Positions 50,517-62,194 of a DNA stretch of 64,000 nt are shown piece by piece; the stretch's first letter is position 1; every line of letters begins with the position of its first letter. Where the stretch lies: contig NZ_CP022163.1 in the NCBI RefSeq assembly GCF_002305855.1, positions 6,811,765 to 6,875,764 of the forward strand. The letters are read 5' to 3'. Under the pieces are notes generated by a model, which was given only the letters and a program-made list of their open reading frames with translations, had not been told where the DNA came from and did no database searches. Both the position numbers and the translations under genes were made by a program. The stretch is from Melittangium boletus DSM 14713 (GTDB lineage: Bacteria > Myxococcota > Myxococcia > Myxococcales > Myxococcaceae).

Positions 50517-51050
50517 GTGGCTTTCTACGAGCAGGACGTCGGCATCCACATCGATGAGCAGAAGCTCCAGGCGCGCGTGCGCGAACTGGGTGCGCAGATC
50601 ACCCGCGACTACCAGGGCAAGGAGCTCACGCTCATCTGTGTGCTCAAGGGCTCCGCGTTCTTCGCCATGGACCTGGCGCGGTACGTGGACCTGCCCCTGA
50701 CGATCGAATTCCTCGGGGTGTCGTCCTACCAGGGCGGCACCGAGACGACCGGTGAGGTGCGCATCACCACCGACGTGAGCAAGCCCATGGCGGGCAAGCA
50801 CCTGCTCGTCATCGAGGACATCATCGATACGGGGCTCACCATGAGCTTCCTCCTGGAGAACCTGCGCGCCCGCCACCCGGCGTCGCTCAAGGTGTGCTCC
50901 CTCCTGGAGAAGCCCTCGCGGGCCCGCACCCAGGTGCCCATCGACTACAAGGGCTTCGTCATCGACGACGTCTTCGTGGTGGGCTACGGGCTCGACTACG
51001 CCGAGCGCTACCGCAACCTGCCCTTCATCGGGTTGATGAAGGGCAAGTAG
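50517..51050 (+). CDS. hpt: Hypoxanthine phosphoribosyltransferase
   Basis: PRPP-binding motif LLVIEDIIDTGLT; GTG start. Confidence 0.85.
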   Translation: MAFYEQDVGIHIDEQKLQARVRELGAQITRDYQGKELTLICVLKGSAFFAMDLARYVDLPLTIEFLGVSSYQGGTETTGEVRITTDVSKPMAGKHLLVIEDIIDTGLTMSFLLENLRARHPASLKVCSLLEKPSRARTQVPIDYKGFVIDDVFVVGYGLDYAERYRNLPFIGLMKGK

Positions 51051-51987
51051 GCGAGCGGGCGGCCCGGGCCAGACCCCGGGCGAGGTGTCCCAGGATGTCC
51101 GTGCCCGCCCGGGCATCGAAGCCGAGGAACATGGGCGAGTCGTTGAGCTCCAGGAACCGCAAGGTGCCCTCCGCGTCGCGCTTGAGATCCATTCCCGTCC
51201 AGCGCAGGCCCAGCACCCGCGTGGCCTGGAGGCATTGGCGTGCCACTTTGGGAGGCAGCTCGAAGGGTTCCACGCGCTCCTCGTTGCGCCGGAAGTCGAG
51301 CGCGTGCGAGAGGATGCGCACGCTGGCGATGATTTCCCCGTCGAGCACGTAGACGCGGATGTCCTCGCCGGGGAGCAGCGTCTGGAAGGTCACCGGCGCG
51401 GCCTCCAGCGCGGCGAGGCGGGCATCGGTCAGATCTCCTGGGCCGAGTTCCAGCGTGGCCCCGCCTCCCTCCACGGGTTTGTAGGCCACGCGCCTGCCGG
51501 CGGCGAACCGGCGCACCGCCGAGGGATCGTTCGTCCAGAGCGTTTCGGGGACGGGCAGCCCCGCCTGTTCGAGCAGCGCGAGCTGGACCGGTTTGGGCAT
51601 GCGCCAGCTCGTGGACTCGGGGTTGTAGATGGGGACGCCCATCGCCTCCCAGCGGCCCAGCAGGCCGCGCAGCAGCGTGGACTTCTCCCGGAACGCCACC
51701 AGCGTGGTGCGCCAGTCGGCGTCCATCTCGTCGCGGACATCCACCCCGAAGGCGAGGGGGTGGGCATGGTAGCCGCGCAGGTAGACGGCCCCAGGGGTCT
51801 TGAGCGGACCGCCATTCACGTGGATGCCGTCGAGTTGCTCCGTCAGCGCCAGGTGCGTTTCCTCGGGGAAGGTGAGGGTGTCCACGACGTGGGCCACCAC
51901 TCCCTCCTGCCCAAGCCGTTGGGCGAGCTGTGACACGTGGGCATCATCGCGAGCGCCCATGAGCACCACGGGCCGGATGTGAGTCAT
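51025..51987 (-). CDS. ATP-grasp-like domain protein (RimK/glutathione-synthetase-like fold), tentative
   Basis: Start MTHIRPVVLMG; its 3' end overlaps the hpt 3' end by 26 nt (convergent). Confidence 0.45.
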   Translation of the reverse strand: MTHIRPVVLMGARDDAHVSQLAQRLGQEGVVAHVVDTLTFPEETHLALTEQLDGIHVNGGPLKTPGAVYLRGYHAHPLAFGVDVRDEMDADWRTTLVAFREKSTLLRGLLGRWEAMGVPIYNPESTSWRMPKPVQLALLEQAGLPVPETLWTNDPSAVRRFAAGRRVAYKPVEGGGATLELGPGDLTDARLAALEAAPVTFQTLLPGEDIRVYVLDGEIIASVRILSHALDFRRNEERVEPFELPPKVARQCLQATRVLGLRWTGMDLKRDAEGTLRFLELNDSPMFLGFDARAGTDILGHLARGLARAARSPTCPSSTR

Positions 51988-52499
51988 GATTTCCTGGCCA
52001 CCTTCTTGGTGGCCGGAGCCTTCTTGGCGGCGGGAGTCTTCTTGGTGGCCGGGGTCTTCTTGGCCGCCGGGGTCTTCTTGCTCGGCGCGCGGCCGGGGGC
52101 GCCGGGCGGAGCTCCCGCGGCTCCCAGTTGTGCCACGAGCTTCTTGGGCGCCACCGCGCGGTAGCTCTCGTCCAGCCACCGGCGCAGCAGCTCCATGGGG
52201 GGCGTGTCCTTGGCACCGAAGCTCGCGGACACCCAGCCGCTCTTGCCCAGGCCGTACCCCGTGGGCTGGGCGAACGGCAGCATCAGCGCCGCTCCATTCG
52301 AGTGGGGCAGCTTGACGGACAGGGACAGGCCCTCTCCGCTGAGTGAGAAGAACACGAAGGCCTTGCCCTTGACCTTCACCGTGGGGTGACCCCAGGGAAA
52401 GTCCTCCGTGGTCTCGGGGTAGGCGCGGGCCGCCTCTCGCAGGGCCTGCACGAAGGGCTCGAGCCTCTTCATCTCGGGGGGAACCGGCGTCATCGTCAT
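51984..52499 (-). CDS. MmcQ/YjbR-family putative DNA-binding protein with a histone-H1-like (AKKTPAAKK) C-terminal tail
   Basis: YjbR core (FPWGHPTVKVKGKAFVFFS...GYGLGKSGWVSASF); GAGGAG RBS 9 nt upstream of the ATG; ATGA overlap with the downstream gene. Confidence 0.6.
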   Translation of the reverse strand: MTMTPVPPEMKRLEPFVQALREAARAYPETTEDFPWGHPTVKVKGKAFVFFSLSGEGLSLSVKLPHSNGAALMLPFAQPTGYGLGKSGWVSASFGAKDTPPMELLRRWLDESYRAVAPKKLVAQLGAAGAPPGAPGRAPSKKTPAAKKTPATKKTPAAKKAPATKKVARKS

Positions 52500-52551
52500 C
52501 GGGCACATCTCCTCGCGGCGCCCGGCGACCATACCGCGCGAGGGCTTCCCC

Positions 52552-53349
52552 TCAGCGCCCCGTTTCCGTGGGGCCGGTGTCCGTGGCTCCCGGTGTCGTC
52601 TGGCCTTCGGGAGTCGTACCTGGAGTCCGCGTGGGTGCTGGCTCCTGGCGCGTGTTCGCGGGAGTTCCGGCTCCGGGCTCACCCAGGCTGGCCTCGGCGG
52701 CGCGCAGGGCCTGCTCCAGGGCCTGGGCTGCCGGGCCCACCGTGGAGAGGAACTGGTTGGCCAGATGGGTGTTGCGGTTGCGGCTCTCCGCCGCGAGCTT
52801 GAGCTGGTTCATCGCCTCGCTCACCCCCCGGCGCGCCTCCTCCAGCTTCTGCTTCGCCTGGAAGAAGGCCACGTCCGCCTTCATCGCCGCCAGGGAGCGG
52901 CGCTGCTCGTCCGTCAAGCCGGAGAGGAGCTCGGCCCGCCGCAGGTAGTAGAGCCCCTTGTCCAGCAGGGCCGGGTCGTCGGACAGCACCTTGGAGCCGG
53001 CGAGCCGTTCCAGGAGGGGGAAGAGCGCCCGGTCCAATTCGTCCCGCTCGGTGAACTTCTGGGTGAGCAGTCCGGAGACGTCCTGGCCCTCCACGGACAG
53101 GGGGGCATAGGCGTCCGCCTGGCGTGCGTCCCCGGGGCGGTAGGGCAGGGCCCCCATCGGCAGCATCCGGCCCTTCATCACCACGAGCTGGCCGTTTTCC
53201 TGGGCCAGGGAAAAGGTGCGCGCGTTGAGCTGCGACAGGAGGAAGGCCACCGCCCCGCCCAGGCCGAGCACGAGGAGGAAGACGAGCAGCCGGGTGAAGG
53301 CGCTCGCGGCCCGGCGGCCGAAGCCCGGGGGATTCGTCATGGAATTCAT
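52552..53349 (-). CDS. Hypothetical membrane-anchored protein (N-terminal TM, Thr/Pro-rich C-terminus)
   Basis: Start MNSMTNPP; single hydrophobic helix LLVFLLVLGLGGAVAFLL. Confidence 0.4.
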   Translation of the reverse strand: MNSMTNPPGFGRRAASAFTRLLVFLLVLGLGGAVAFLLSQLNARTFSLAQENGQLVVMKGRMLPMGALPYRPGDARQADAYAPLSVEGQDVSGLLTQKFTERDELDRALFPLLERLAGSKVLSDDPALLDKGLYYLRRAELLSGLTDEQRRSLAAMKADVAFFQAKQKLEEARRGVSEAMNQLKLAAESRNRNTHLANQFLSTVGPAAQALEQALRAAEASLGEPGAGTPANTRQEPAPTRTPGTTPEGQTTPGATDTGPTETGR

Positions 53350-53450
53350 GTGCTTGCTCTCCCCTCGTCCGGGCGGTGAGGCGATTTCCCGGCGCTGGTG
53401 CATTCCTTAGGGACAACCCTCCCCGGGGCTATACTCGGCCGCTCTACCTC

Positions 53451-56400
53451 ATGCATCCTACATTCCGCCGCCTGGGGACCAGTGAGCTGTTGCCCCGGTA
53501 CATCTTCGCGGAGAGCCTCTTCGCCCGCCGCCGTGTCCTGGAAGTGGACGCGGTCGCCACCACGGGGGGTGAGAGCGCGCGCTTCCTCCTCGAGCGGGGC
53601 GCCCGCTCCGTGGTGGCCTGCGATGCCAACCTCCAGGCCGTGGAGGCCGCTCACAAGGCCCATGGTGGCCCCACGCTGCGCTACCGCGCCAATGTCTACG
53701 ACGACCTCGAGCCCGGCAGCTTCGATCTGGTGCTCGTGGCGGACCTGGCGCCTTACGTGCGCGCGCCCCTGCTGCTCGCCGAGCTGACGCGCCTGGTGGG
53801 CCGGCAGGGTCATCTGATCGGCGGCCTGCGCAACGTGGCGGGCCTGGCCCTCTGGCAGTTGATGGAGGTGGAGGAGGGCGCGCCGCCCACGTACGGGCAA
53901 CTGCTCGACGCGCTCTCGCCGCACTTCCCCCACGTGGAAGTGGCCACCCAGTCCCCGGTGCTGGGCTACCAGCTCGCCTTCGAGAAGGGGGACGGCCTGC
54001 AGGTGGATGGCACCCTCATCCGTGGCGGCGAGGCGGCCTATTTCGTCGTGGTGGCGGGGCAAGACCCGGCCCGGGTCGTGGACCCCACCTGGGTGCAGCT
54101 GCCCCCCGAGCCCCTGGCCTTCACGCGCGGCAAGCTCGATGAAGTGGCCCAGCGCGGCAAGGGGTGGGAGGAGCGCGCCGGACGGCTCAAGGAATCCCTC
54201 ACCCGGGTGCGCGCGGAGCTGACCGAGCGCGAGGCCGAGGTCGTCGAGCTCAAGCCCGCCCTGGAGGTCGCCCGGGAGGACGTGGCCCGGCTCTCCGCCC
54301 AGCTCGAACTGGCGCGGGGCTCGCCCGAGTCCGCGCGCGAGCGGGACGAGCTGTCCTCGCGCCTGCGCCGCACGGGCCTGGAGCTGCAGGTGGCCCAGGA
54401 GCGCCTGGCGGACGCGGACCGGCGCCTCGCCCAGCAGCGGCTGGAGGTGGAGTCCGCCGAGCGCGCCCGCAAGGAGTCCGAGGTCCAGGCCCTGGCCGCC
54501 CAGGAGGGCGTGCGTCTGGAGCGCGCGCGCCGCGAGGAGTTGAACGCCTCGCTGGAGGAAGTCCGCGAACGGCTCACCCAGGCCTATGCCGAGCAGCGCG
54601 AGCTGCGCGACGAGCTGGCGGGGCTCCGCGTGGATCGGGAGAAGGATCGACTGGCGGCGGAGCGCGCGCGCGAGCAGGCCGAGGCGCTGCGGCGGGACAT
54701 GGAGTCGGCTCGGGAGCGCGAGGTGCGCCTCGCCGAGCAGCACTCGGCGGCGCTCGCCGCGGTGGAACTGCTCAAGTCGGACGTGGCCCGGGCCGAGCAG
54801 GCGCGCGAGGAGTCGGAGAAGTCGCTGCGTCTGCAGGACGCGGATGTGTCCCGGCTGACGCGAGAGGTGGATTCGCTGGCCCGGCGGGCCTCCGCCGCGG
54901 AGGCGGCCCGGGGCGAGGCGGAGGTGAGCCTCACGGCGCGCGAGGCCGAGCTGCGCGGACTCACGACGGAGCTCACGTCGGCGCGCGCCGAGCGCGAGCG
55001 GTTGTCGGCCGAGGTCCAGGACGGCGCTCGCACCCAGGCGCATGCGCGCGCGATGGCGGCGCGGCTCGAACAGGAGCTGCACGAGGCCCGGGCCCAGCTC
55101 TCCTCCCAGGAGGAGGCGCGGGTGCGCGCCGCGGTGGAGCTGGAGGAGACCCTCGAGGAGGAGCGCCAACAAGCGGAGGAGCGGCTGGCGCGGGCGCTCA
55201 CCGAGGAGCGGGCGCGGACGGAGGAGGCCTCGGCCGAGGCGTCTCGGGAGCGGGCCGCCCGCGAGGCTCTGGAACAGCGGGAGGCGGAGCTCGAGCAGCG
55301 GTTGCGAGTCGCGGAGGCCTCGCGCGAGGAGACCCTGCGCGCCGTTTCCACCCTGAAGGCGCAGCGGCAGGGCTGGCTCGACGAGCACGGCAAGCTGCGG
55401 CGGCGCGTGGCGGAGGCCGAGGCGACGCTCGCGGAGCTGGAGCGGGCGCGCGCCGTGGACATGGAGTCCATCTCCCGGCTCGATACGGAGCTCCAGGCGA
55501 CCCAGGGCCGTATCACCGCCGAACAGGAGGCCCGGGTGGGGGCCGAGGTAGAGCGGGACCAGGCTCAACTGGAGCTCACCCAGGAGCAGGAGGCCCGGGC
55601 TCGTCTGGAAGATTCGCTCGCCCAGGGCCAGTCCGAGCTCGCCGTCGAGCGTCAGCGGTTGTTCGAACTCCAGGCGACGGTGTCTAGCGCCCGTGCCGAG
55701 TTGAAGGCCGAGCATCAGCGGCGCGTGCAGGCGGAGGAGGCGGGGGCGAACAGTCTGGCGGCGCTCGAAGCGGAGCGTCAACAGCGCACCCAGGTGGACG
55801 AGACCCTGGCCGAGACGCGGATCGCGCTGGAGGCGGAGCAGGGGGCCCGGAGCGCTTCCGAGGGAGCCCTCCTCCAGGCGCGGGAGGAAGCCGAGGCCGC
55901 GCGCGAGCACCGGGAGCGGATCGCGCGCGAACTGGAGCGTATCCAGGACGAACTCGAGGCCGAGCAGCAACAGCGCTCGGGGACCGAGGTGTCCCTGGCG
56001 GGCACGGAAGGTGAACTCGAGGCCGAGCGCGAGCGCCGGACCTTCGCGGAAGAGTCCCTGGCGGGGGTTCGCGCGGAGCTGGAGTCCGAGCGCGAGCAGC
56101 GGTCCCGGTCCGAGCAGGCGCTGGCGCATGTCCGAGCGGAGGTGGAGGCCGGGCAGCAACGGCTCGCCGAGGTCGAGGCGTCGCTGGCGGAGAAGGACGC
56201 GGAGGTGGAGGCCGGGCAGAAGCGGCTCGTCGAAGTCGAGGCGTCCCTGGCGGAGAAGGACGCGGAGGTGGAGGTCGGGCAGCAACGGTTCGCCGAGGTC
56301 GAGGCGTCGCTGGCCGAGAAGGACGCGGAGGTGGAGGCCGGCCAGAGGCGGCTCGCCGAGGTCGAGGTGGCCTTGGCCGAGAAGGACGCGGAGGTGGAAT

Positions 56401-57917
56401 CCGAGCGCGAGCTGCGGGCCTTCGCGGAAGAGTCCCTGACGGGAGCCCGCGCGGAGGCGGAGTCCGAGCGCGAGCAGCGGGCCGGAATCGCCCGGTCCCT
56501 GGCCTTCCTCCAGGAAGAGCTCGGCGCCGAGCAGCGGCGGCGCGTCGAGTCCGAGGCGTCGCTGGCGGAGAAGGACGCGGAGCTGGAATCCGAGCGTGAA
56601 CAGCGCGCCCGCGCCGAGGAGTCGCTGTCGCTCCTCCAGACGGAGCTGAGCGACGAGCGGCGTCAGCGCTCGGACGCGGGAGATTCCCTGGCGACGCTGG
56701 AGATGGGGCTGGCGCGGGAGCGCGAGGCCCGGGCCCGTGCCGAGCAGGCCCTGGCGGCCGTCCAGGGCGAACTGGACGCGGAGCGAGCGACCCTCGGCGC
56801 ACAGCTCGATTCGGAGCGGGCGGGCAAGGCGCGCGTCGAAGCGTCCCGGGCCAAGGTCCAGGCGGAGCTGGGGGCCGAGCGGAAGCAGCGGGCCGAGCTC
56901 GAGGAATCGCTCGCCTCCATGAGCGCCGCGTGGGACGTGGAGCGCGAGGCGAGGGCGCGGGCCGAGGAGTCGTTGGGCGTCGCCAAGGCGGACCTGGAGG
57001 CCGCGCTCGCGGCCTCGGCGGCCCGGGCGCGGGAGTCGCTGGAGCTCGTCCAGGCGGAGTTGGAGACCGAGCGGCGGCAGCGCGCCGAAATGGAGGGGCT
57101 GTTCGCGGCGGAGCGGGAGGAGGCCGACACGCTCCTGTCCTCGGTTCGCGCCGAACTGGAGTCCGCCCGGAGCGAGCGGCCCGTGCTGGAGGCGTCGTTG
57201 GCGGAGCGGAAGCAGCTCGTCGAATCGCTCCAGGCCCGTCTGGCGTCGGAGCAGGAGACCCTCGCCGCCACCCAGGCGCGCGAAGCCGCCACCGCCGCCG
57301 AGCGCGAGGCCCGCAAGCGCGAAGCGGTGGAGTACCGGATGGATCTGGAGGGACTGCGGGAGGACCTGGCCAAGAAGGACGCGGAGGTCGCGGCGCTGCG
57401 CCCCCAACTGGCCGAACTCGATGCCTTCCGGTTCCAGGCCCACCAGGCCTCGATGGCGCTCCAGCAGGCCCACATGGGCCTGCGCGAGCGGGATCTGCTC
57501 GTCCAGAACCTCCAGAAGGAGCTGTCCGAGACCCAGGCCCGGCTGTCCTCGGAGACCGAGCACCTGGACCTGCTCTCGGTGAAGCTCGAGGCCGCGCGCC
57601 GCATCGCGGGCAAGGCCACCTCGCTGGAGACCGCGCTGGAGGAGGAGCGCGCGGCGCTCGGTTCCACGCGGGAACTGCTCGCGGGGCTCGAGGTGGAGAA
57701 CGCCCGGCTCGTCTCCGAGCTCGCGGCGGCCGAGGAGGCCCGGGCCCGGGCGGAACAGGACACGGTGAGGCCGGCGCGGGAGGCGGATTCCGTCCAGGAC
57801 ATCTACGCGCGGGCCCACGCCGAGATCAACGCGGTGAAGAATGAGTTGCTTCGCCGCCCCAAGGGGGGCACACCGCCCACTACCGCCGCCTCCTCGAAAC
57901 CCGAGGAACCAGGCTGA
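53451..57917 (+). CDS. Giant coiled-coil protein (1488 aa): N-terminal degenerate class-I methyltransferase-like domain followed by about 1230 aa of E/A/R/L-rich heptad-repeat coiled coil
   Basis: N-terminal VLEVDAVATTGGESARFLLERGARSVVACDANL...FDLVLVADL, Rossmann-like but lacking GxGxG. The remainder is continuous coiled-coil-type sequence with internal tandem repeats. The antisense ORF 53346..58490 was rejected. Confidence 0.7.
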   Translation: MHPTFRRLGTSELLPRYIFAESLFARRRVLEVDAVATTGGESARFLLERGARSVVACDANLQAVEAAHKAHGGPTLRYRANVYDDLEPGSFDLVLVADLAPYVRAPLLLAELTRLVGRQGHLIGGLRNVAGLALWQLMEVEEGAPPTYGQLLDALSPHFPHVEVATQSPVLGYQLAFEKGDGLQVDGTLIRGGEAAYFVVVAGQDPARVVDPTWVQLPPEPLAFTRGKLDEVAQRGKGWEERAGRLKESLTRVRAELTEREAEVVELKPALEVAREDVARLSAQLELARGSPESARERDELSSRLRRTGLELQVAQERLADADRRLAQQRLEVESAERARKESEVQALAAQEGVRLERARREELNASLEEVRERLTQAYAEQRELRDELAGLRVDREKDRLAAERAREQAEALRRDMESAREREVRLAEQHSAALAAVELLKSDVARAEQAREESEKSLRLQDADVSRLTREVDSLARRASAAEAARGEAEVSLTAREAELRGLTTELTSARAERERLSAEVQDGARTQAHARAMAARLEQELHEARAQLSSQEEARVRAAVELEETLEEERQQAEERLARALTEERARTEEASAEASRERAAREALEQREAELEQRLRVAEASREETLRAVSTLKAQRQGWLDEHGKLRRRVAEAEATLAELERARAVDMESISRLDTELQATQGRITAEQEARVGAEVERDQAQLELTQEQEARARLEDSLAQGQSELAVERQRLFELQATVSSARAELKAEHQRRVQAEEAGANSLAALEAERQQRTQVDETLAETRIALEAEQGARSASEGALLQAREEAEAAREHRERIARELERIQDELEAEQQQRSGTEVSLAGTEGELEAERERRTFAEESLAGVRAELESEREQRSRSEQALAHVRAEVEAGQQRLAEVEASLAEKDAEVEAGQKRLVEVEASLAEKDAEVEVGQQRFAEVEASLAEKDAEVEAGQRRLAEVEVALAEKDAEVESERELRAFAEESLTGARAEAESEREQRAGIARSLAFLQEELGAEQRRRVESEASLAEKDAELESEREQRARAEESLSLLQTELSDERRQRSDAGDSLATLEMGLAREREARARAEQALAAVQGELDAERATLGAQLDSERAGKARVEASRAKVQAELGAERKQRAELEESLASMSAAWDVEREARARAEESLGVAKADLEAALAASAARARESLELVQAELETERRQRAEMEGLFAAEREEADTLLSSVRAELESARSERPVLEASLAERKQLVESLQARLASEQETLAATQAREAATAAEREARKREAVEYRMDLEGLREDLAKKDAEVAALRPQLAELDAFRFQAHQASMALQQAHMGLRERDLLVQNLQKELSETQARLSSETEHLDLLSVKLEAARRIAGKATSLETALEEERAALGSTRELLAGLEVENARLVSELAAAEEARARAEQDTVRPAREADSVQDIYARAHAEINAVKNELLRRPKGGTPPTTAASSKPEEPG
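56136..56400. repeat. 60-bp tandem repeat, about 4.4 copies, encoding AEVEAGQQRLAEVEASLAEKD units inside the coiled-coil gene
   Basis: Near-identical consecutive 60-mers (GAGGTGGAGGCCGGGCAGCAACGGCTCGCCGAGGTCGAGGCGTCGCTGGCGGAGAAGGACGCG) seen in sequence. Confidence 0.6.
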
Positions 57918-57932: not shown

Positions 57933-58784
<852 letters not shown>

Positions 58785-60688: not shown

Positions 60689-62194
60689 TTGGCCCAGGTC
60701 CGAAAAATCCTCATCGCCGACCCCGACCTCGAGTCCGTCCGCCCCCTGTCGCGCGCCCTGCGCACCCGGGGCTACCAGGTGCACTACGCGCCGGATGGCT
60801 CGCGGGCCCTGGAGGTCGCCGTGCTGCGCCACCCGGATCTCATCCTCTTCGATGAGGCGTGCCGGATGCTGGACGCGCGCACCTTCATCAACATCCTGCA
60901 CACCAACCCGCGCACGGATGACATCCCCGTCGTGGTCTCCACCAGCCAGCTCGAGGCCGACAAGATGCGCGGCCTGCGCGATGGCTTCCTGCGCAAGCCC
61001 TTCAACCTGGATGAAGTGCTCTCGCGCATCGAGCACGTCTTCCGGCGCAGCGAGGCGGCCAAGGATCTCAAGAGCGAGGTCCAGGAGATCGAAGGCTCGC
61101 TCAGTCAGCTGAGCATCCCGGACCTGATGCAGATCCTCGGGATGAACAAGCGCAGCGGGAAGCTGACGCTGGAGAAGGGCAACGATCGCGGGGAGATCGT
61201 CGTGGTGGAGGGCCGCCCGTTCAACGCCCGGGCCGGCCGCGCCGAGGGCGAGAAGGCCCTCTTCCGGCTCCTGGTGTGGACCGAGGGCACGTTCACCTTC
61301 GCGCCCGGCAACACGTCCGGCAAGCCCCGCATCCAGCGCCCCATGGACAGCGCCCTGCTGGAGGCGATGCGGCAGGCGGACGAGGTGAACCGGCTGCTGC
61401 CCGGACTGCCGCCGCGCAACACCCGGCTGGTGCTCGCGCCGGACGCGGATCTGCAACAGGACCAGCACCCGGTGACGGCGCAGGTGGTGGAGCTGCTGCG
61501 CCAGCCCCGCGCCGTGAGCGAGGTGTTGGACCTGGCGCCCGCCACGGATCTGGAAGTGGTGGGGGTGCTGCACACGCTCCTGCAGAAGGGCGTGGCCCGC
61601 ATGGCCGAGGGCGATGCCGACGCGGGGGTCAGCGCGCCCCTGCTCGCGCCCGCCGAGCTGCACGCGCTGCGCGGCCGCATCCTCCGGGGCCGGGGCGTGT
61701 CGCGCGATGCCACGGCGAAGCTCTTCGTGTGTGGCAGTGGTCCGGCGGTGGCCCGGCGGGTGCTCTCCCAGTTGGCGGAGCTCGCCGCGGTGGCCGCCGA
61801 GCCGCCCGCGGTGCGCAGTGGTTTCGGCACGCTGGGCCGCATGGAGCTCAACGAGCTGCTGCACCTGGACTTCTGCGTGCTGCCCCCGGCGGAGGCGGCC
61901 CGGCCCTTGTGGCGGCCGTTCAGCGCCGGGGCGGTGGGGGCGCTCTTGTTCGACACCACGGAGGCGGCGGTGAAGCTGGCCCACTTCCTGGCGTGGGACA
62001 TCCGCCTGCCCGTGGTGGTGCTGGGCCACGAGGTGCCCCAGGAACTCCAGGACGCGCCCGCGGGCTCCGTCAGCGTGGGGGAGGATCTCAAGGACGCCCT
62101 GCGCAGCCTGCTCGTCCTGGCGCTCAACCCCACGCCCCTGTCGCCCGGCATTCCGCTGCCGCCGTCCGCGCGCTCCGCGTCCACGGCGCCGTAG
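60689..62194 (+). CDS. Response-regulator receiver plus PATAN/DUF4388 domain protein with a C-terminal degenerate P-loop/Roadblock-like region
   Basis: REC KILIADPD...; DUF4388-like SLSQLSIPDLMQILGMNKRSGKLTL...GEIVVVEGRPFNA...LLVWTEGTFTF; C-terminal KLFVCGSGPAVARRV; TTG start. Confidence 0.6.
   Translation: MAQVRKILIADPDLESVRPLSRALRTRGYQVHYAPDGSRALEVAVLRHPDLILFDEACRMLDARTFINILHTNPRTDDIPVVVSTSQLEADKMRGLRDGFLRKPFNLDEVLSRIEHVFRRSEAAKDLKSEVQEIEGSLSQLSIPDLMQILGMNKRSGKLTLEKGNDRGEIVVVEGRPFNARAGRAEGEKALFRLLVWTEGTFTFAPGNTSGKPRIQRPMDSALLEAMRQADEVNRLLPGLPPRNTRLVLAPDADLQQDQHPVTAQVVELLRQPRAVSEVLDLAPATDLEVVGVLHTLLQKGVARMAEGDADAGVSAPLLAPAELHALRGRILRGRGVSRDATAKLFVCGSGPAVARRVLSQLAELAAVAAEPPAVRSGFGTLGRMELNELLHLDFCVLPPAEAARPLWRPFSAGAVGALLFDTTEAAVKLAHFLAWDIRLPVVVLGHEVPQELQDAPAGSVSVGEDLKDALRSLLVLALNPTPLSPGIPLPPSARSASTAP

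Follow-up and report, generated by a model that had tools for sequence, protein, structure and literature searches.

We examined a 64,000-nucleotide stretch of Melittangium boletus DSM 14713 (RefSeq assembly GCF_002305855.1, contig NZ_CP022163.1, positions 6,811,765 to 6,875,764 of the forward strand; hereafter the window). It carries a gene whose 1488-residue product joins a methyltransferase-fold head to a very long predicted coiled-coil rod. The open reading frame (ORF) starts with an ATG at 53451 and its stop codon ends at 57917, as a preliminary description made from the sequence alone had proposed and as ORF calling and translation bear out. The frame extends open as far as a GTG at 53376, but orthologues share the same N-terminal MHPTFRRLG, which points to 53451 as the likely start. 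GC content at third codon positions (GC3) is 0.90, and the codon-position pattern is that of real genes in this ∼70% GC window. Close relatives as well as distant ones carry the gene intact, which answers the objection, foreseen in the preliminary description, that the ORF might be disrupted in the former. An ORF artefact or pseudogene was rejected on the basis of codon bias and conservation, and a second copy in the window was rejected because tblastn returns this single copy. The gene is thus genuine and conserved in myxobacteria, and its product is a long, rod-shaped protein with a globular head. One neighboring gene product matches a Melittangium boletus database entry at 100% identity, in line with a Myxococcaceae origin. 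No signal peptide or transmembrane segment is visible in the 1488-residue sequence, and Pfam and NCBIfam scans of the protein detected no ATPase, receiver or other catalytic domain. The parts of the gene and its neighbors are listed in Table 1.

Table 1. Coordinates of the coiled-coil gene, its subregions and the adjacent genes, in window positions.
Feature	Position	Strand	Basis or remark
Whole coding sequence, 1488 residues plus stop	53451..57917	+	ORF and translation; GC3 0.90; intact orthologues
Head, residues 1-225, begins with family motif SELLPRY	53451..54125	+	Pfam, AlphaFold2, Foldseek, conservation
Remodelled motif I, residues 29-47, VLEVDAVATTGGESARFLL	53535..53591	+	Alignment with canonical relatives
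Retained motifs, SVVACD (beta-2, acidic D58, motif II) to FDLVLVADL (motif IV, D92 and D98)	53607..53747	+	
Head-rod linker motif DPTWVQLPPEPLAF, residues 211-224	54081..54122	+	Near-invariant in orthologues
Conserved proximal rod or neck, residues 228-400	54132..54650	+	Identity profile; AlphaFold2 helix from 228
Variable distal rod, residues 401-1440, E/A/R/L/Q-rich predicted heptad coiled coil	54651..57770	+	Periodicity, register runs
Tandem array of 63-bp units, ∼8.8 degenerate copies	56072..56627	+	Tandem Repeats Finder
Array core, 4.2 copies at 88% identity, unit AEVEAGQQRLAEVEASLAEKD	56136..56398	+	Tandem Repeats Finder
C-terminal motif SVQDIYARAHAEINAVKNELLRRPK, residues 1447-1471	57789..57863	+	Orthologue survey
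Short Pro/Thr/Ser-rich tail, residues 1472-1488	57864..57914	+	Translation
Divergent neighbor, single-pass membrane protein, 266 residues from MNSM start	52552..53352	-	ORF open to 53403
dapF	57933-58784	+	Pfam; 15-bp gap after coiled-coil stop
REC-GAF-degenerate GGDEF protein, 616 residues	58824-60674	+	Pfam; 39-bp gap before
REC-PATAN (DUF4388) protein	60689-62194	+	Pfam; 14-bp gap before

The methyltransferase-fold head and its rebuilt cofactor loop

A methyltransferase-like layout had been noticed in the N-terminal region, and profile and structural comparisons agree with it. Scanned alone, residues 1 to 250 match Pfam Methyltransf_11 at 29.1 bits (cut-off 21.2, E 1.6e-6); in the scan of the full 1488 residues, methyltransferase scores are only sub-threshold. 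The AlphaFold2 model of residues 1 to 262, made with 33 homologues, has a core with predicted local distance difference test values >90 and the alternating β/α order of the fold, and its long helix begins at residue 228. When the model was compared with the PDB by Foldseek, the 50 best matches listed were all class I S-adenosylmethionine (SAM)-methyltransferase-fold proteins, led by ToxA (5je6, E 1.7e-9); 722 matches were returned at E ≤1e-3. Comparison of the head sequence and profile with PDB sequences gave weak methyltransferase matches (E 0.003-0.1) plus coiled-coil noise, and the fold assignment therefore rests on Pfam and on AlphaFold2 with Foldseek. These results confirm that residues 1 to 225 adopt a class I SAM-methyltransferase fold; the similarity whose absence would have spoken against the preliminary description is present in both Pfam and Foldseek.

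The head has the Rossmann-like fold and motif order of class I methyltransferases (Methyltransf_11/25; closest structures ToxA 5je6/5jdz, XrdM 8rdl and 3l8d). In these enzymes, an acidic residue at the end of β-2 binds the ribose hydroxyls of SAM. This residue is kept as D58 in SVVACD, as is the FD of motif IV, and the acidic residues of motifs II and IV align with the same motifs in methyltransferase 4isc. Conservation across orthologues is at least 90% for D58 and D92 and complete for D98. The head differs from the solved enzymes in its low identity to them (12-18%), in its fusion to ∼1260 more residues of coiled coil and tail, and in motif I, which has been rebuilt without GxGxG.

Motif I of class I methyltransferases is a glycine-rich loop that contacts SAM. 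In the window protein it reads VLEVDAVATTGGESARFLL, with EVDAVATTGGE as the loop portion; the (D/E)xGxGxG of active class I enzymes is absent, as had been recognized from the sequence. Alignment with canonical relatives (LEVG---CGDGIGA) places a three-residue insertion exactly in the glycine loop. Glycines are lost, with Val, Ala and Thr in their place, and the first Gly is Asp in this genus. The rebuilt loop is held nearly constant: in orthologue alignments V29, L30, E31, A34, V35 and G40 are invariant, and T38, S42 and A43 nearly so.

To place this loop in a wider context, a profile of the head was searched against 1.84 billion cluster representatives (clusters at 50% identity), in which 100 clusters scored at E ≤1e-30, a number that rose to 485 at E ≤1e-10. 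Members of the 100 clusters combine an N-terminal head with a tail that is 60 to 80% E/A/R/L/Q/K. Among the 150 best matches listed, fragments excepted, the head lies at the N terminus or within ∼40 residues of it. Loops were surveyed in 138 newly retrieved representatives of these 150, the other 12 having been found earlier. Closer relatives carry the remodelled LE[VI]GA(V/A)xxTxGxSA, whereas ∼25 more distant representatives carry a canonical LE[VI]GCGxGxGA on the same head-plus-tail architecture, with tails likewise 60 to 80% E/A/R/L/Q/K and total lengths up to 1985 residues. Because the remodelled form is conserved clade-wide and distant relatives keep GxGxG, the missing motif, as read from these alignments, is a derived, clade-wide and selected feature, not random decay. 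The ancestral head was probably an ordinary SAM-binding domain or enzyme.

The canonical-loop relatives (among them P0146, P0165, P0178, P0187, and P0203 from a Polyangia metagenome-assembled genome [MAG]) have homologous heads that match the profile at E 1e-20 to 1e-33 and show 28 to 36% identity by tblastn. They share LPRY, Q(S/T)xFLG and VQLP with the window protein and, like it, have a coiled-coil-like tail, of 300 to 1700 residues; they differ in their canonical GCGxGxG SAM loop. In the one case examined for context, the Polyangia MAG, the gene adjoins rho, L31 and RF-1, unlike that of the window. The hallmarks of the family are (S/G)(E/D)(L/I)LPRY, a methyltransferase core, Q(S/T)x(F/L)(L/V)G, a VQLP linker and a long E/A/R/L/Q/K-rich tail, and the window protein has all of them. 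Defined in this way by profile search, the true family of the protein is an unnamed methyltransferase-headed coiled-coil group. Databases automatically name its members "methyltransferase domain-containing protein", "chromosome segregation ATPase", "HCR" or "plectin". A word-indexed homologue search listed only short or partial proteins (longest 443 residues), with generic methyltransferases below ∼E 1e-25; the taxonomy it gave for distant relatives was only "Polyangia bacterium" and "Myxococcota bacterium". One candidate relative, P0211, was rejected as an ordinary methyltransferase within a glycosyltransferase cluster.

No Pfam or NCBIfam model spans the methyltransferase-head and coiled-coil architecture, and literature searches for MXAN_5055 and for methyltransferases with coiled coils in Myxococcus brought up no publication about the family. 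The supposition that the domain combination is undescribed holds to that extent, but the combination is not a one-off, since the family comprises at least 100 clusters. A recently curated Pfam family may exist, given that accession PF28019.1 is precomputed for one orthologue (P0004). The architecture is that of a putative head-and-rod coiled-coil scaffold with a new type of head, and the family is sizeable and uncharacterised. Three metagenome relatives (P0111, P0122 and P0134) represent a subfamily ending in ...LKAKGLGKIFR or ...LKSKGLGKFFSR. Such an ending, which is missing from the window protein, resembles the amphipathic tails that target MinD/FtsA-type proteins to the membrane.

These comparisons bear on whether the protein might be an active SAM-dependent methyltransferase with an unusual but functional loop, positioned by a long coiled-coil stalk. 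The fold and the acidic residues of motifs II and IV are retained, and no other part of the protein is as conserved as the head. Distant members combine canonical GCGxGxG with this architecture, which makes an enzyme the probable ancestral state of the head. Against catalysis stand the three-residue insertion in the glycine loop and the Val, Ala, Thr and Asp residues that have taken the place of its glycines. The Pfam score is marginal, profile-to-PDB sequence matches are weak (E 0.003-0.04), and neither a substrate-binding lid nor a candidate substrate is evident. On balance, we consider an active enzyme unlikely, at about one chance in five.

A segmented rod behind a conserved neck

Beyond the head, residues ∼228 to 1440 (∼1210 residues) consist largely of E (19.8%), A (19.5%), R (13.9%) and L (12.0%). 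The strongest hydrophobic period is 3.45 to 3.55 residues in every 105-residue segment from 211 to 1435, with z up to 6.8 versus shuffles; in the head, this period is not the strongest. Tracking of the heptad register gave single-register runs of up to ∼220 residues with ∼15 to 20 register shifts, and a mean best-register score of 0.41 versus 0.23 for the shuffled rod. Leu dominates the a and d positions. Prolines in the rod region are limited to residues 269, 292, 1244, 1318 and 1441. Composition and periodicity agree with the E/A/R/L/Q-rich, heptad-type sequence of the preliminary description, and heptad periodicity is sustained along the whole rod. The long predicted coiled coil is thus essentially right, although the ∼1230 uninterrupted residues first claimed become ∼1210 (228-1440), segmented by register shifts and prolines rather than strictly uninterrupted. 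Fully extended, with a rise of 0.1485 nm per residue, a rod of this length would measure ∼180 nm.

Matches of the rod in domain libraries were coiled-coil cross-matches only (SMC, tropomyosin, crescentin), and a Pfam scan of the C-terminal 271 residues gave only coiled-coil noise. The NCBIfam scan returned SMC-type coiled-coil matches below threshold and weak methyltransferase matches, and nothing else. Some automatic annotations state that proteins of this kind are SMC-like and chromosome-organising; consistent with them are a score of 69.7 bits to NCBIfam SMC_prok_B and the JGI names of relatives. That score is far under the cut-off of 567.35, however, and every matched stretch lies inside the coiled coil. 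The protein lacks a Walker A/B head, ATPase halves at both termini, a hinge and an antiparallel fold-back, and its N terminus has a methyltransferase fold. We rejected an SMC identity on the grounds of this N terminus and of a sub-cut-off score confined to the rod, and regard it as highly improbable.

Three other groups of long coiled-coil proteins offer partial likenesses. In Myxococcus xanthus, AglZ and FrzS consist of a pseudo-receiver head and a long coiled coil. As in the window protein, their N terminus is a head of a signalling or enzyme fold whose active-site features are degenerate, and a very long coiled coil makes up the C-terminal part; they also occur in the same bacterial family. 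By analogy, their design appears to be the closest functional resemblance. The head described here is of the class I methyltransferase fold and not a receiver, there is no sequence homology, and Pfam found no Response_reg match in the protein, although both downstream regulators match clearly. Crescentin, FilP and Scy resemble the rod only, which is likewise long, segmented, heptad-based, E/A/R/L-rich and variable in length through repeats; their heads are short and unstructured, in contrast to the 225-residue enzyme-fold domain found here. The crescentin rod model (Rod_CreS) gave no match at E ≤1 for the window protein, and the 24.7 to 26.9 bits reached by orthologues, against a cut-off of 100, do not place them among the intermediate filament (IF)-like proteins. 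KfrA-type plasmid proteins also have a globular N-terminal head and a long coiled-coil tail (PMC7821693); they differ in having a DNA-binding head, in being plasmid-encoded and in being much shorter, and they have no homology to the window protein.

Conservation is graded along the protein. A locus scan with one genome per species returned 79 loci, of which 78 belong to Myxococcaceae or related Myxococcota MAGs; the exception is a weak partial match in a Thermoleophilaceae MAG (L078). Genera with an orthologue include Archangium, Cystobacter, Vitiosangium, Hyalangium, Citreicoccus, Myxococcus, Pyxidicoccus and Corallococcus. Of the 66 loci that hold the whole gene, ∼60 have an intact ORF, with lengths of 1009 to 2293 residues (median ∼1750). 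Five copies (L022, L032, L056, L067 and L076) are split, and in these a second frame takes up the high-GC3, E/A/R/L-rich coiled coil; one frameshift per copy probably accounts for the split, whether it arose in assembly or marks a recent pseudogene. Identity to the window protein is >90% in the head, ∼80% at residues 200 to 400 and ∼60% at residues 500 to 700; beyond residue 800 it is ∼30 to 45%, with many indels. By lineage, head identity is 82 to 92% to the named genera and 64 to 72% to deeper MAGs. Identity in the neck (∼80-87% to Archangium and Cystobacter, ∼70-78% to Myxococcus and Corallococcus, ∼47-53% to deep MAGs) is far above that of the distal rod. The core of the linker between head and neck, (V/A)(Q/A)LP, persists even in the most distant family members.

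Part of the distal rod is a tandem array. The unit that Tandem Repeats Finder gives is 63 bp, or 21 residues (three heptads), and not the 20 residues first reported. The distal rods of orthologues carry differing, lineage-specific arrays with periods of 7, 14, 18, 21, 25, 36 and 42 residues, built from whole heptads and hendecads. Tandem duplication is therefore the means by which rod length evolves. Judged from this pattern of conservation, the conserved functional unit is the head plus neck, and the distal rod behaves like a length-tolerant spacer. Close to the end of the protein, 22 of 62 full-length sequences carry a short C-terminal helix motif with the consensus (S/T)VQDIYARA(N/H)AE(L/I)NAVKN(E/D)LLRRPK, located 36 to 82 residues from the C terminus (221 in L052). 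Its carriers are Melittangium, Archangium, Cystobacter, some Myxococcus and Pyxidicoccus, and two deep MAGs; among the 62 sequences it was not found in Corallococcus or Hyalangium. The short tail that follows differs in length and sequence among orthologues.

Gene neighborhood and possible sites of action

The divergently transcribed neighbor encodes a membrane protein that databases automatically name "IF-2 protein", a name probably due to its Pro/Thr/Glu-rich tail. It has no Pfam match and no recognizable specific fold. Its gene is the most persistent neighbor of the coiled-coil gene and is still present in the 45%-identity outgroup L077; there it is encoded upstream in the same orientation, and a single ORF of the opposite strand separates the two genes. 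Many short-read contigs of Myxococcus and Corallococcus (L025, L026, L032, L036, L044, L045, L047 and others) end within this gene or just past it, at a distance of a few hundred bases from the start of the coiled-coil gene, probably because of the repetitive, GC-rich, Pro/Thr-coding 3′ end of the "IF-2 protein" gene. Farther out, at 51025-52506 on the minus strand, lies a 493-residue ORF with a RimK-like ATP-grasp domain only at its C-terminal end; it occupies the same position in only some Archangium loci.

Downstream, dapF and two response-regulator genes follow at short intervals. Scans for promoter and terminator consensus sequences found nothing, including no terminator-like site between the four genes, as expected for a 70% GC myxobacterium. 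In the REC-GAF-GGDEF protein, the GGDEF signature is degenerate (SEQEF) and the RxxD I-site is intact (RDSD), exactly five residues upstream, which suggests a non-catalytic response regulator that binds cyclic di-GMP. Pfam gave no matches in the last ∼170 residues of this protein, nor in the C-terminal ∼170 to 200 residues of the REC-PATAN protein (KLFVCGSGPAVARRVL ... LDFCVLPP); by eye, the latter region resembles a degenerate P-loop or small-GTPase-like domain.

From this placement the preliminary description had proposed a cytoskeletal or polarity module. The protein would then be a structural part of a polarity or motility module together with the two regulators, by analogy with AglZ and FrzS. 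The gene does lie upstream of dapF and both regulators, with tight spacing throughout, and the block is syntenic across the Archangium-Myxococcus-Corallococcus clade; a GAF-GGDEF gene is also nearby in the 45%-identity outgroup. Cyanobacterial PATAN-REC proteins act in the control of pilus-based motility (PMC11181946). Other observations point away from a shared function. The upstream housekeeping genes (phosphoribosyl pyrophosphate synthetase, tdk and a phosphoribosyltransferase) are equally syntenic, and the synteny of the downstream block therefore looks like inherited gene order. In deeper lineages the regulators and dapF are displaced or absent, and the distant Polyangia relative adjoins rho, L31 and RF-1 instead.

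Data from M. xanthus weigh in the same direction. There, dapF is MXAN_5054 (PMC11980068), and MXAN5053 is a 617-codon GGDEF gene that matches the 616-residue GGDEF protein of the window. The orthologue of the coiled-coil gene is presumably MXAN_5055, given its adjacency to these two. Deletion of MXAN5053, the orthologue of the adjacent GGDEF gene, left growth, gliding and type IV pilus-dependent motility unaffected (PMC4686200). Our literature search found no mention of MXAN_5055, MXAN_5052 or MXAN_5056, the last being the presumed counterpart of the divergent membrane-protein gene. We regard a role in such a polarity module as improbable, slightly more so than the envelope-linked role considered below.

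In the deeper lineages, the coiled-coil gene is followed immediately by a gene for a PDZ protein; dapF then comes after the latter or is missing at that locus. At seven loci (L052, L054, L059, L061, L068, L070 and L077) this gene encodes ∼700 to 760 residues (e.g., 11779-14064 in L077) with carboxypeptidase-regulatory-like (CarboxypepD_reg-like) repeats and a C-terminal PDZ domain, assigned by eye. In L052, dapF follows the PDZ gene; at the other loci with the PDZ gene, dapF was not found in the locus. In L070, the coiled-coil and PDZ genes read as a single 2555-residue ORF, produced either by genuine fusion or by a frameshift.

The product of dapF makes meso-diaminopimelate, a peptidoglycan precursor. 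The coiled-coil protein might accordingly be an envelope or cell-wall cytoskeletal element of the crescentin/FilP/Scy type that works with the divergent membrane protein and is coexpressed with dapF. The membrane-protein gene is the most persistently linked neighbor, dapF begins 15 bp past the stop codon, and the PDZ/CarboxypepD_reg-like product of the deep-lineage next gene is of a typically envelope-located kind. Orthologue rods also match the crescentin rod model weakly and below threshold, but at these scores the matches reflect generic coiled-coil similarity. The association is one of gene order only, the membrane protein has no recognizable fold or domain, and IF-like bacterial proteins lack a globular enzyme-fold head. 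Such a role seems doubtful to us, less so than the polarity module and more so than an active enzyme. The envelope and polarity proposals are sub-cases of where a scaffold acts, and the likelihoods we attach to these readings are not exclusive of one another.

Proposed role and implications

We consider it about an even chance (roughly 0.5) that the protein acts in the cytoplasm as a scaffold or tether of head-and-rod form, with a head that has a binding and not a catalytic role. This proposal is made because of the fold, the clade-conserved loop, the heptad runs, the conservation gradient and the repeat-driven variation in length. The protein stems from the wider methyltransferase-headed coiled-coil family, whose more distant members have canonical GxGxG; in this clade the SAM loop was rebuilt, by the three-residue insertion and loss of glycines, and has stayed constant since. 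Under the proposal, head and neck would serve as a specific binding or assembly module instead of transferring methyl groups. The distal rod would tolerate changes in length and act as a spacer or in self-association, and the whole protein would act as a scaffold or tether. From sequence features we infer a dimeric coiled-coil state, the loss of catalysis, the scaffold or tether role and, with no signal peptide or transmembrane segment visible, the cytoplasmic location. The "pseudo-enzyme-headed" scaffold of the preliminary description is a reasonable reading in that the remodelled loop is conserved clade-wide, with the qualification that D58 and D92 are retained.

Several points count against this proposal. 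E31, the ribose-binding acidic D58 and D92 are all retained, and strong purifying selection on the rebuilt loop would likewise be consistent with a new mode of binding, to SAM or to a different ligand. The coiled-coil assignment rests on in-house periodicity and register statistics. The deeply conserved membrane-protein neighbor, in turn, hints at a more specific, envelope-linked role than that of a scaffold.

A bolder version of the scaffold proposal is a tentative one, which we hold to be improbable: the protein may represent a new class of cytoskeletal or tethering protein, in which the head has turned into a sensor of a ligand or partner and an evolvable rod of 150 to 300 nm sets a distance within the cell. 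If so, the head might, for example, report SAM or S-adenosylhomocysteine or bind the membrane-protein neighbor, and the spatial organisation of the myxobacterial cell would be tied to its metabolism or to the state of its envelope.

Long coiled-coil scaffolds headed by degenerate signalling domains serve myxobacteria in the organisation of motility, division and development. If the scaffold reading is right, the rebuilt methyltransferase fold would be a third, unstudied type of scaffold head, one that is conserved throughout the Myxococcaceae. Because canonical and remodelled SAM loops form a natural series within one architecture, the family would provide a clean system for following the conversion of an enzyme fold into a structural or binding module, and the range of rod lengths (1009-2293 residues for the total protein) would permit a direct test of the importance of rod length. 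The immediate value lies in a defined, testable family with a presumed orthologue, MXAN_5055, in a genetically tractable organism.

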